A stretch of 32,000 nucleotides of DNA from Candidatus Thorarchaeota archaeon (GTDB taxonomy: Archaea; Asgardarchaeota; Thorarchaeia; Thorarchaeales; Thorarchaeaceae), in assembly GCA_003345555.1 (NCBI GenBank), contig PRDJ01000068.1, positions 3,393 through 35,392 on the forward strand, in the 5' to 3' direction. How positions within the stretch are numbered: position 1 is the stretch's first letter; each line of letters opens with the position of its first letter. A program made the translations under genes and the position numbers. Below are positions 6,597 to 8,933 of this stretch, one piece after another. The notes beneath the pieces were generated by a model. The model saw only the letters and a list, made by a program, of their open reading frames with translations. It was not told the DNA's origin and did not search any database.

Positions 6597-8933
6597 TTGG
6601 ATTCACCAAGAGTTCTATTCGAGATAAAAGACGACCTCAGCACGAGCGCGATCGCAGTAGGAAACCTTGCGGGCTCGGCACAGCCAGAGTTGTGTACTGG
6701 TGGACGAGACGGAGTGCTCCGCATCTATAGTGCAAGAAGAACCGGGGTTGAATTTCTGGCACAACATGACGTTGAGGGGAGCATCCTATCCATCGAGATT
6801 GCGGATGCAAACAACGATGGCCAAATGGAACTGGTGGTTGGCAGAAGCGTAGGTCCTCGCGATGTTCCCGGACAGGCCGGGACACTGCAAGTCTATCGGC
6901 TGACGTCGGCTAACGCCTTCGAGCTCCTGGCTGAATACCCCGTCGACCGCTTTGTGACCTCAGTCCACGTTACAGACGTAACAGGTGATGAGAAGAACAA
7001 GATACTTGCGGGCGGCAGTGACTCCACACTGAGGGTTCTCGAAATGGATACAGAGAACAACCTGCGTGAGTACGCTCGTTACCAGCTCGAAGACATGCCA
7101 ATAACAATCGGCACCTCTGATGTGGACGGTGACGAAATCGACGAGATTGTCACAGGCAACCGTGACAAAACCCTGCGAGTTTTCAGGGTAAAGGATGGTT
7201 CCATCGAGCAGATGGATGTCTTGGATCTGCCAAGCCCTGTTGTGTCTGTCGCCTCGGGAGACATACTTGGAGACCGAAAGATGGAGCTTGCAGTAGTCAC
7301 GTACGACGGATCAATTAGAGTCTATCGTAACGAGGAAAGCAAACTCGAGCTCTTCTCTATGCTCGAAAAAGTCAAGGCTCTTTCAGTGAGAATCGAGGAG
7401 ATGAATGCCGACCATTTGGATGAGCTGGTTGTGGCAACATCGGACGCAAGGATTGTCTTCTACAATGTTCAGGCGGCTGAGCTCCATGAGCTGGCAACAG
7501 TCAGCATCGGAACGAAAATCCTTGCGATTAGCGTCGGTGACACTGATGGAAATGGGCGCAAGGAGGTCTTGGTGGGCATCTCGAATGCGCCCCTGAAGGT
7601 CGTCGAGGGGCTGTACACTCTCATACCAAGATTCGAGGTGAGCACGGAGGCACGAGCTGGCAGCCGACTCACTGGCAAGTTTACGATTACGAACGTTACC
7701 GATAAGCAGGTGAGCGGTATCTCCGGGAAGGTCTACTGGTTCCCCAAGAGCGACATGGAGATCACTCCTCAGCAACTTCGCTTTGACTTGGACGCCCATG
7801 AGACGAAGACGGCGGACTTACAGCTTACACCGAATGTTGAAGGAACGATCATAGTGAGGCCGATTGTCCTGATGTGGACCGACAATGCAGGTCAGGTTAG
7901 ACAGGTTACGACGCCCGAGACCGCAGTACTAGTGCAGAGAGGCAGTGCTATTGCCGCCCCCGTTGCTAGCACACCAATTGCCCTTCCATCAGAGTCTGAA
8001 TCCCGCGGGACCGAGGCGGAGGCTGATTCCTTTGGTCCAGTTATCGGGACTGGTTTCGGCGCGGTCCACGCCGCCCAGGCCGAACAATCGTCGGATGAGG
8101 CTCCAATCTCAGCTAGTACAGAGGAAGCCCTCAGAGACGCAGAGAGACTTCTGGACAGGATTTTCGATGAATCACCTCCAGAAGTGGAACTGAGCGCCTT
8201 GGTAACTGAGGCGGTGTCAGAAGAAGAAGAAGCCGAACCAGCACCGGTGGCGCCGACTGTTGTTGCTTCGAACGAGAGTGCAATCGTTGCCGAGATACGC
8301 GCCCGTAAAGCGAAGTCTCCGAAACCTGGCACAACCTCAGATAGCTATAGCTATCTCTTCAAGACAATGGTGACGGGAGAGGGTGCGGTCGGCAAGACCG
8401 CTCTTGTAAACCGATTTACAACAGGGCAGTTTGAGAAGGACTACAAGACCACGATAGGTTCCCAGTTTGCTGTGAAGCTAACATACATCTCGCCGACGGA
8501 GTCTGACTATGCTGTTGGAATCAAGATTCAGGCGTGGGACGTTGCCGGGCAGGCACGCTTCAAGGCCGTCCGCAAGATGTACTACAGCGGCGCAGCAGGT
8601 GTCATACTTGTCTTCGATGTTACTCGTAGGCGTTCATTCACTGAGCTAATGAAGTGGGTAGAAGAGGCCGATGAGTCAATCGGCGGCCGCGTTCCGATGG
8701 TGTGTGTCGGCAACAAAATTGACTTGCCTGACAGGGCTGTTCCGAGTGAGGAAGCCAAGGAATGGGCGGAATCGCAAGGGTTTGTCTACATGGAAAGCAG
8801 TGCGAAGACTGGGGAAGGCGTGGCGGATATGTTCAGCGTGCTCGCAGAACTGATGTGGGGAATTGCGCACAAGGGGACCGATTCAAGGAAGACTGGCGAC
8901 AGCAAGAAAGGCCCGGATTCCAAGAAGCGCTAG
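6597..8933 (+). CDS. Multidomain protein: 7 FG-GAP-like repeats (beta-propeller) + Ig-like sandwich + acidic linker + Rab-like small GTPase
   Basis: Seven D-x-x-G-D/N-x-x-x-E-hydrophobic repeats in aa 16-336; GTPase motifs GEGAVGKT, YKTTIG, WDVAGQ, NKID, SAK from about aa 584. TTG start, no signal peptide. Confidence 0.9.
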   Translation: MDSPRVLFEIKDDLSTSAIAVGNLAGSAQPELCTGGRDGVLRIYSARRTGVEFLAQHDVEGSILSIEIADANNDGQMELVVGRSVGPRDVPGQAGTLQVYRLTSANAFELLAEYPVDRFVTSVHVTDVTGDEKNKILAGGSDSTLRVLEMDTENNLREYARYQLEDMPITIGTSDVDGDEIDEIVTGNRDKTLRVFRVKDGSIEQMDVLDLPSPVVSVASGDILGDRKMELAVVTYDGSIRVYRNEESKLELFSMLEKVKALSVRIEEMNADHLDELVVATSDARIVFYNVQAAELHELATVSIGTKILAISVGDTDGNGRKEVLVGISNAPLKVVEGLYTLIPRFEVSTEARAGSRLTGKFTITNVTDKQVSGISGKVYWFPKSDMEITPQQLRFDLDAHETKTADLQLTPNVEGTIIVRPIVLMWTDNAGQVRQVTTPETAVLVQRGSAIAAPVASTPIALPSESESRGTEAEADSFGPVIGTGFGAVHAAQAEQSSDEAPISASTEEALRDAERLLDRIFDESPPEVELSALVTEAVSEEEEAEPAPVAPTVVASNESAIVAEIRARKAKSPKPGTTSDSYSYLFKTMVTGEGAVGKTALVNRFTTGQFEKDYKTTIGSQFAVKLTYISPTESDYAVGIKIQAWDVAGQARFKAVRKMYYSGAAGVILVFDVTRRRSFTELMKWVEEADESIGGRVPMVCVGNKIDLPDRAVPSEEAKEWAESQGFVYMESSAKTGEGVADMFSVLAELMWGIAHKGTDSRKTGDSKKGPDSKKR
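8871..8930 (+). repeat. Three imperfect 6-aa repeats forming a polybasic GTPase tail (KGTDSR-KTGDSK-KGPDSK-KR)
   Basis: Read directly from the translation of 8871-8930; no C-terminal cysteine. Confidence 0.8.

Follow-up and report, generated by a model that had tools for sequence, protein, structure and literature searches.

A protein kept across sampled Thorarchaeales joins an FG-GAP-class propeller and Ig-like domain to a Rab-like GTPase

Architecture of the fusion protein

A 32,000-nucleotide stretch of a Candidatus Thorarchaeota genome (GenBank assembly GCA_003345555.1, contig PRDJ01000068.1, positions 3,393 to 35,392 of the forward strand; hereafter the window) was analyzed, and one of its genes was found to encode an intact Rab-like GTPase switch and a folded propeller/immunoglobulin (Ig) platform in a single chain, with an acidic linker between the two. 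The fusion protein is single-copy and is kept in every sampled genome of the order Thorarchaeales. This identity and the evolutionary reading that goes with it can be held with high confidence. The fuller description of the protein as a lineage-specific scaffold with a tethered switch, which combines the identity with a mechanism, is favored with modest confidence. The features of the gene are as follows, with window positions, strand, and amino acid (aa) residues.

6597–8933, + strand: whole fusion gene, 778 aa, stop codon included (open reading frame list and translation)
6597–7610, + strand: seven-bladed beta-propeller of the FG-GAP class, aa 1–338, closed by the N-terminal strands 6–22
7611–7940, + strand: Ig-like beta-sandwich, aa 339–448
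7941–8339, + strand: acidic Ala/Pro/Glu-rich linker, aa 449–581 (133 aa), kept in length and charge and not in sequence
8028–8060, + strand: aromatic/Gly motif of the linker, aa 478–488 (orthologue alignment)
8121–8174, + strand: putative amphipathic helix motif within the linker, aa 509–526 (orthologue alignment and hydrophobic moment)
8340–8861, + strand: Rab-like small GTPase domain, aa 582–755, with G1–G5 and the catalytic Gln of DxxGQ
8862–8930, + strand: short basic C-terminal tail, aa 756–778, free of Cys

The gene is a single uninterrupted open reading frame (ORF) of 778 codons, whose TTG start codon aligns with the initiator Met in 15 orthologues. In the public annotation, this sequence is called as 740 aa and begins 38 residues downstream, a difference in the start codon alone. 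The N-terminus is polar, and no hydrophobic N-terminal stretch or transmembrane segment could be detected anywhere in the protein, the maximum Kyte-Doolittle mean over 19 residues being 1.18. Thus, the protein is predicted to be cytoplasmic, and it must reside where GTP is, because the GTPase sits in the same chain and a signal peptide is absent. The original prediction, which was made from the DNA letters and a list of their ORFs, had proposed the domain order of propeller, all-beta segment, acidic linker, and GTPase in a cytoplasmic protein lacking a signal peptide; the ORF, the structural model, and the motif positions agree with it on each of these points.

Mean identity across the orthologues was 85% for the G domain, 70% for the propeller, 63% for the sandwich, and 34% for the linker. 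Comparison with the nearest genome gave a ratio of nonsynonymous to synonymous substitution rates (dN/dS) of 0.03–0.07 in each of the four parts, at a dS near saturation.

The Rab-like GTPase domain

The complete set of G motifs that had been claimed for the C-terminal domain could be located at G1 (GEGAVGKT, 594–601), the switch I Thr (YKTTIG, 616–621), G3 (WDVAGQ, 647–652), G4 (NKID, 706–709), and G5 (SAK, 735–737), and the segments YYSGA (662–666) and LVFDVT (671–676) are likewise in place. Pfam analysis revealed a Ras match with an E value of 8.7e-46 (156 bits), against 45 bits for Arf, and the TIGR00231 model scored 87.6 bits. When a profile of the family was compared with the PDB, the best match was Thor-Rab (7EZB; E 2.3e-53), followed by Rab14, Rab1A, Rab30, and Rab11A at 1e-46 to 1e-40. 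Its sequence assigns the G domain to the Asgard Rab-like family.

Thor-Rab (PDB 7EZB, 7EZD, and 7EZE) resembles the fused G domain in having all G motifs, the catalytic Gln, and no Cys for prenylation, but it is a stand-alone protein of 182 residues, whereas the G domain described here lies at the C-terminus of a 778-residue chain and the fused copies form a clade of their own. Thor-Rab has been reported to bind GDP and GTP-gamma-S and to hydrolyze GTP at a rate resembling that of human Rab11B (Tran et al. 2024, PMC10933270). The fusion protein contains Cys only at residues 33 and 703; its tail (aa 756–778) therefore lacks the C-terminal Cys motif used for geranylgeranylation in eukaryotic Rabs, as is also the case in Thor-Rab (PMC10933270). 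The tails of the orthologues are shorter and rich in Lys/Arg.

Of 16 Ras-family matches in the same genome, about ten are stand-alone small GTPases. The closest stand-alone paralogue is 53% identical to the fused G domain, and the P-loop and switch I sequences are common to both. A longer beta2-beta3 hairpin was considered as a contact site specific to the fusion and was ruled out, as the stand-alone paralogues have it too.

An adaptor and a switch in one chain are also seen in the large Rabs of animals (CRACR2A-L, Rab44, and Rab45), in which a long N-terminal adaptor/sensor region with EF-hands and coiled coils precedes a C-terminal Rab, and which are prenylated. These proteins have no propeller, and no evolutionary link is known to connect them with the Thorarchaeal protein.

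Folds of the propeller and the sandwich

An AlphaFold2 model of aa 1–455 was built on a family alignment of 19 sequences and reached a predicted local distance difference test score (pLDDT) of 90.8 and a predicted template modeling score of 0.86. Its 28 strands form seven blades of four strands each, with strands 6–22 at the N-terminus closing the ring, and this confirms the seven-bladed propeller that the original prediction had deduced from seven repeats; the two repeats quoted there correspond to blades 4 and 5 (aa 169–196 and 216–243). The all-beta segment expected at about aa 340–447 was modeled as a separate domain with strands at 342–447, and the sandwich modeled alone had a pLDDT of 89.3.

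Pfam analysis of the propeller gave FG-GAP_3 at 74.9 bits over four stretches and FG-GAP at 37.1 bits. Asp-rich loop motifs of the FG-GAP type are present in blades 2–7, and those of blades 2, 4, and 7 follow the pattern D/N-x-D/N-x-D/N-G-x-x-E. Residues D70, N73, D74, G75, E78, D175, G178, D179, E183, and E323 were invariant in the orthologue alignment. The fold search with the sandwich alone revealed a match to a subunit of the TRAP translocon (E 7.7e-6; template modeling (TM) score 0.79), and MSP/VAP and PapD-like domains matched about as well. On the model, the sandwich taken alone is an ordinary Ig-like fold of the generic Ig/MG/CARDB-like kind. As a whole, the N-terminal module represents the common form of the FG-GAP propeller class, in which an Ig-like domain follows the propeller.

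These loops admit an explanation in which the protein is a sensor with an output, the propeller/Ig module binding a ligand or metal via FG-GAP loops rich in Asp/Asn and the Rab-like domain passing the signal on, an arrangement known from other multidomain prokaryotic proteins of the Ras superfamily. The loops of blades 2, 4, and 7 are of the kind that binds Ca2+ in integrin FG-GAP repeats, the loop residues listed above are invariant, and conservation within the protein is highest in the G domain, all of which fit such a role. Against it, ITFG2, which serves as a scaffold and is not known to be a sensor, shares the loop pattern where the two proteins align, and the neighboring genes point to no ligand. 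A sensor function is thus considered rather unlikely.

Distribution and evolutionary history

A word-indexed search revealed more than 120 clusters (90% identity) of proteins of 750–830 residues, which were 61–81% identical to the fusion protein over 94–99% of the query; those with names were called 'GTP-binding protein' and came mostly from Candidatus Thorarchaeota. The distribution was then surveyed in 400 genomes of the phylum. A match was present in all 85 genomes of the family to which the window belongs, mostly at full length, and the partial matches that were inspected lay at contig ends. The single genome of a sister family in the same order carried a copy of 44–45% identity split over two contig ends, and a second copy of the sister type (P0123; 781 aa, 41% identical) was uninterrupted on a 45.8-kb contig. 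Across the remaining 31 families (314 genomes), matches reached E values of 1e-25 to 1e-51 at best, which is the level of the G domain alone. The survey across Asgard genomes that the original prediction had called for therefore places the fusion in a single order.

Several full-length matches (G355, G356, G340, G354, G368, G372, and G378) were flagged with one or two internal TAG codons, and they extend further into the C-terminal tail of the query (residues 768–773) than most. The flagged TAG is probably the stop codon of each orthologue itself, past which the six-frame alignment would have continued.

An exhaustive HMMER search with residues 1–455 against 1.84 billion representative proteins returned three full-length clusters at 50% identity and a few short pieces of the family, after which the score fell from 374 to 130 bits; beyond this drop, the matches were large multi-repeat FG-GAP proteins. 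A split orthologue consisting of the propeller and Ig-like domain alone was found neither among these representatives nor in the 400 genomes of the phylum, which argues that the covalent linkage itself is selected.

Phylogenetic analysis, which had been suggested along with the survey, grouped the fused G domains of 14 genomes into one clade (support 94/95) with the sister-family copy at its base and short branches. The simplest history compatible with these sequences would be a single fusion event at the root of Thorarchaeales followed by vertical descent.

The original prediction had also named a misassembly or an oddity of one assembly as a danger, and a chimeric gene call would have the same effect. 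The frame is uninterrupted in 12 independently assembled genomes, where it lies within a collinear block, and also on single-contig genomes of 2.6–3.2 Mb. Nothing was found in favor of an artefact, and the chance of one is negligible; the shorter public call reflects the start codon only. The fusion is conserved and real.

A published description of this architecture could not be found in the literature on the Asgard BBSome, Thorarchaeota FG-GAP/Rab proteins, and archaeal ITFG2. The propeller-Ig-linker-Rab combination seems to be undescribed, and it is built from known kinds of parts.

Likeness to BBSome and KICSTOR proteins

The original prediction had regarded the blades as resembling the BBS2 propeller and had proposed a coat or tether scaffold with its own membrane-recruiting switch. 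Taken further, the protein would be a specific relative or forerunner of BBSome/KICSTOR scaffolds, i.e., a proto-coat or tether subunit whose propeller and GAE-like ear carry the recruiting GTPase in the manner of ARL6 for the BBSome. A resemblance could indeed be measured. The Pfam models BBS2_Mid, Beta-prop_BBS7, and Itfg2 scored 53.8, 53.1, and 33.2 bits, respectively, above the cut-off of 27 for each, and PHTB1_N and the BBS1 models remained just below theirs. In the comparison of the family profile with PDB sequences, ITFG2 was the top match (E 2.7e-8) with two significant stretches, aligned in the same N-terminal register (profile 5–81 with ITFG2 9–83); BBS7 (E 0.0022) and BBS2 (E 0.0083) followed below it, and integrin was absent among the 60 matches listed. 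Foldseek analysis against the PDB placed the BBSome subunits BBS2/9/7/1 at ranks 1–9 (E 1.7e-18 to 1.3e-13), with integrin alpha headpieces, CRTAC1, and ITFG2 after them. Against the Swiss-Prot models, ranks 1–15 were taken by BBS2, PTHB1/BBS9, BBS7, and BBS1, in alignments that cover the query to residue 439–454 and thus extend through the sandwich, as do the BBSome alignments from the PDB. In addition, a second, stand-alone BBS-like propeller, described below, is universal in the family.

The resemblance did not prove specific. Other prokaryotic propellers of about 400 residues, which were taken from the exhaustive search as controls (one from Helarchaeales, with a 796-aa relative from 'Promethearchaeota'), passed the BBS2_Mid, BBS7, and Itfg2 models as well, often with higher scores; four of them reached 63–73 bits with BBS2_Mid. 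A classic bacterial VCBS protein with an FlgD-Ig tail failed all three models. A six-frame search also recovered a 2292-codon frame with FG-GAP-like repeats (G000 contig 1, about 92377–92850, − strand, L003) that scored 27.5 bits with BBS2_Mid, and a frame of this kind reaching the cut-off indicates that the model responds to the repeat class.

The AlphaFold DB fold clusters, which are rich in prokaryotic proteins, unlike the PDB and Swiss-Prot, gave a different ranking. Ranks 1–18 (E 2e-19 to 4e-16) were mostly FG-GAP, VCBS, Calx-beta, DUF3794, or choice-of-anchor D proteins, most of which cover query residues 1–445/455 and hence both the propeller and the sandwich; the first BBS-type matches were PTHB1 at rank 19, a BBS2-like protein at rank 22, and BBS1 at rank 28. 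The shape search of the ESM Atlas yielded bacterial FG-GAP clusters with Dockerin, DUF11, ASH, or FlgD-Ig domains at TM scores of 0.68–0.74, as well as one Asgard cluster of 81 members bearing BBS Pfam labels. The strongest sequence matches beyond the family itself were prokaryotic FG-GAP/VCBS proteins (E 1e-32 to 1e-15), and the Z margin over plain WD40 propellers was 2–3 units. BBS affinity is therefore not specific, because prokaryotic FG-GAP/VCBS proteins obtain equal or higher scores. Of the original claim, the BBS2-like character of the blades stands as a measurable property; a specific BBS/coat affinity is not supported.

The comparison of whole architectures leads in the same direction. 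BBS1/2/7/9 share with the fusion protein a seven-bladed cytoplasmic propeller that matches the family models, but in BBS2/7/9 the sandwich is followed by coiled coil, platform, and helical domains, none of which could be recognized by Pfam or in the sequence past aa 448, and the sandwich fold is generic. In the BBSome (PDB 6VBU and 6VOA), the GTPase ARL6 is a separate, Arf-like protein with an amphipathic helix, whereas the GTPase here is Rab-like, covalently attached, and equipped with neither a lipid anchor nor an N-terminal amphipathic helix. These features do not bear out the membrane-recruiting switch. A search for BBS5 (PF07289) gave no match in the 93%-complete genome and is uninformative, as no match was obtained in any control genome either.

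ITFG2 works with KPTN, SZT2, and C12orf66 upstream of the Rag GTPases. As a KICSTOR subunit (PDB 9V6E and 9O5A), it matches the Thorarchaeal propeller by the Pfam Itfg2 model and by the profile; its fold alignment involves the propeller alone (model residues 3–335), with no match seen in the sandwich, and unlike the Thorarchaeal protein it is not fused to a GTPase.

The best structural matches overall are prokaryotic surface proteins that combine FG-GAP/VCBS repeats with Ig-like domains (DUF11, ASH, FlgD-Ig, or Calx-beta). Many of these relatives have domains of the secreted or surface type (Dockerin, Por secretion-system sorting domain, or FlgD-Ig), many are very large with multiple repeats, and no GTPase occurs among those listed. 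The secretion or surface anchoring of this class is not shared by the Thorarchaeal protein, with its polar N-terminus and lack of a transmembrane segment.

A 2026 preprint reports a structural cluster of solely Asgard and eukaryotic proteins labeled BBS7/ITFG2 (bioRxiv 10.64898/2026.10.28.762692), which speaks for a relationship. By the coverage rules of that preprint, the cluster more likely concerns stand-alone propellers. The restriction of the fusion to Thorarchaeales tells against descent from a BBSome/KICSTOR forerunner. Moreover, Thorarchaeales is not the order usually placed nearest to the eukaryotes. Such a forerunner is accordingly regarded as unlikely. In eukaryotes, the cytoplasmic side of the FG-GAP class consists of BBS1/2/7/9 and ITFG2, which are also the members best represented in curated libraries; the likeness is one of propeller class and is not evidence of ancestry. 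None of the tests made here singles these proteins out as the nearest relatives.

This result calls for caution in the search for eukaryotic signature proteins. In this case, above-threshold matches to the Pfam models of BBS2, BBS7, and ITFG2, like the leading positions in the PDB and Swiss-Prot, reflect membership of the FG-GAP class, and the BBS/ITFG2 signal no longer distinguishes the protein once prokaryote-rich structure libraries serve as controls.

The acidic linker

The original prediction had given the linker as about 135 aa of acidic Pro/Ala/Glu-rich sequence, which agrees well with the 133 aa now assigned. Among 131 residues counted, 26 were Asp or Glu, 9 Lys or Arg, 24 Ala, and 12 Pro. 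In 16 orthologues, the linker ranged from 119 to 141 aa with a net charge of −12 to −23 at an identity of 34%, and its dN was 4–5 times that of the folded domains. The sequence suggests that the linker is probably disordered; its length and charge, and not its sequence, are under selection.

Within this variable region, L512, A515, E516, L518, L519, and F523 of the segment aa 509–526 were invariant in the 16 orthologues. The maximum hydrophobic moment of the linker (0.75) was found in the 18-residue windows starting at 507–508, and the segment may form an amphipathic helix. The polar face of this predicted helix is charged, which is more in keeping with binding to a protein than to a membrane. 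A weaker motif could be recognized at F479 and T485, which are at least 90% conserved, with GTGF (484–487) in most orthologues. The FGP/GTGF stretch was considered as a motif of the ear-binding type; it is well conserved at F479 and T485 only and was set aside as a loose lead.

Proposed mechanism

The fusion protein would consist of a common prokaryotic propeller and Ig module that lacks a secretion signal and is connected to an Asgard Rab-like GTPase by a disordered, acidic leash about 130 residues long. In the proposed mechanism, the propeller/Ig module would serve as a protein-binding platform and the GTPase as its built-in switch, with the tether holding the switch at high local concentration beside the platform. 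The GTP/GDP state would then set the docking of the G domain, or of the amphipathic helix of the linker, on the platform, or it would set whether the G domain is free for outside partners. Alternatively, the platform may act as a built-in regulator of the G domain. Such crosstalk between the halves, and any particular mode of it, is put forward tentatively as a possible and less than probable mechanism. ARL6 and BBS1 provide the known example of a propeller platform controlled by a GTPase, and the Thorarchaeal protein would at most work in a similar way.

Several points weigh against this mechanism. The neighboring genes are metabolic (2-oxoacid:ferredoxin oxidoreductase, ABC transporter, and DHH phosphoesterase) and point to no partner. 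An acidic leash of conserved length could serve ends besides tethering. For this propeller class, a specific Asgard-eukaryote link may also exist, to judge from the preprint cluster.

Another possibility is that the fusion provides no more than 1:1 synthesis and co-localization of two proteins that act on a shared external partner and do not regulate each other by contact. This would suit a linker that is long, poorly conserved in sequence, and probably disordered. On the other hand, the length and charge of the linker are tightly kept around an invariant amphipathic motif, and no split version occurs in the representative proteins or the phylum genomes searched, so that mere co-production appears improbable.

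To our knowledge, Asgard archaea have many Rab-, Arf-, and Rag-like GTPases and almost no known effectors or platforms for them. A candidate pair of switch and platform in one polypeptide, kept in all sampled genomes of one order, would offer a direct handle on what an archaeal Rab-like switch controls.

A second, stand-alone propeller

A stand-alone propeller of 334 aa without a signal peptide is encoded elsewhere in the genome (G000 contig 57, L002:1474–2478, − strand), next to a CDP-alcohol phosphatidyltransferase gene. It scored 39.7 bits with Pfam Beta-prop_BBS7 and 32.4 bits with BBS2_Mid, and each of the 31 family genomes sampled carried a single copy (33–85% identity). The protein is put forward as a possible partner for the fused propeller. 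By analogy with the BBS2-BBS7 and ITFG2-KPTN pairs, the two propellers might pair as a cytoplasmic scaffold whose assembly, or engagement with membrane or cargo, is toggled by the Rab-like switch, which is highly doubtful at present; if true, it would represent an archaeal counterpart, perhaps a true relative, of GTPase-controlled platforms of the BBSome/KICSTOR type.

Gene neighborhood

The fusion gene lies between a divergent gene for an ATP-binding cassette (ABC) transporter ATPase and a convergent oxidoreductase gamma-like gene. The order of the surrounding block is a 127-aa protein, an NMT1-type binding protein, a permease, the ATPase, the fusion, a gamma-like subunit of 2-oxoacid:ferredoxin oxidoreductase (POR), a fused POR alpha/beta/ferredoxin protein, and a DHH protein; three poorly annotated genes and a geranylgeranyl reductase gene continue it. 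This 20-kb block is collinear in 12 genomes of different genera, and the POR, DHH, and 127-aa genes are again adjacent in the sister family. It represents conserved genome order and not an operon. No gene for a GTPase-activating protein, a guanine nucleotide exchange factor, or a roadblock, longin, TBC, or DENN protein was a conserved neighbor in the block in these 12 genomes. The conserved neighbors were ruled out as partners, since a long collinear block of ABC transporter, oxidoreductase, and DHH genes is uninformative on function.

Two sets of 2-oxoacid:ferredoxin oxidoreductase genes flank the locus (window 48–3076 and 8930–11428, both − strand), and both belong to the collinear block.

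48–992, − strand: ORF of the split oxidoreductase set, unannotated
989–2281, − strand: alpha subunit of the split set
2501–3076, − strand: gamma subunit of the split set
8930–9514, − strand: gamma-like subunit of the second set, followed by a 624-aa fusion of POR_N, thiamine pyrophosphate-binding, and 4Fe-4S ferredoxin parts

The 127-aa protein (window 3226–3609, − strand) adjoins the fusion locus in 13 of the 13 loci compared, including that of the sister family, where it is 43% identical. It had no Pfam or PDB match, and a protein-language comparison gave a weak lead to SpoVS/Alba-like proteins (score 0.87–0.89). It was considered as a regulator of the roadblock type and rejected, this weak lead being the only one obtained.

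Just past the DHH gene, the sister-family genome has two genes with no counterpart in the window. One encodes a 319-aa protein (L005:11794–12753, − strand) in which an Arf-family G domain follows an N-terminal extension of 140 residues, and the other encodes an 886-aa protein (L005:12826–15486, − strand) without a clear family. Further along the window (12662–16641, − strand), adjacent genes of 318, 655, and 351 aa were observed, the first two with weak matches of the winged-helix/TrmB/IclR type. In tblastn analysis, the regions that the three match in other genomes overlapped, a pattern suggestive of a small family of helix-turn-helix paralogues.

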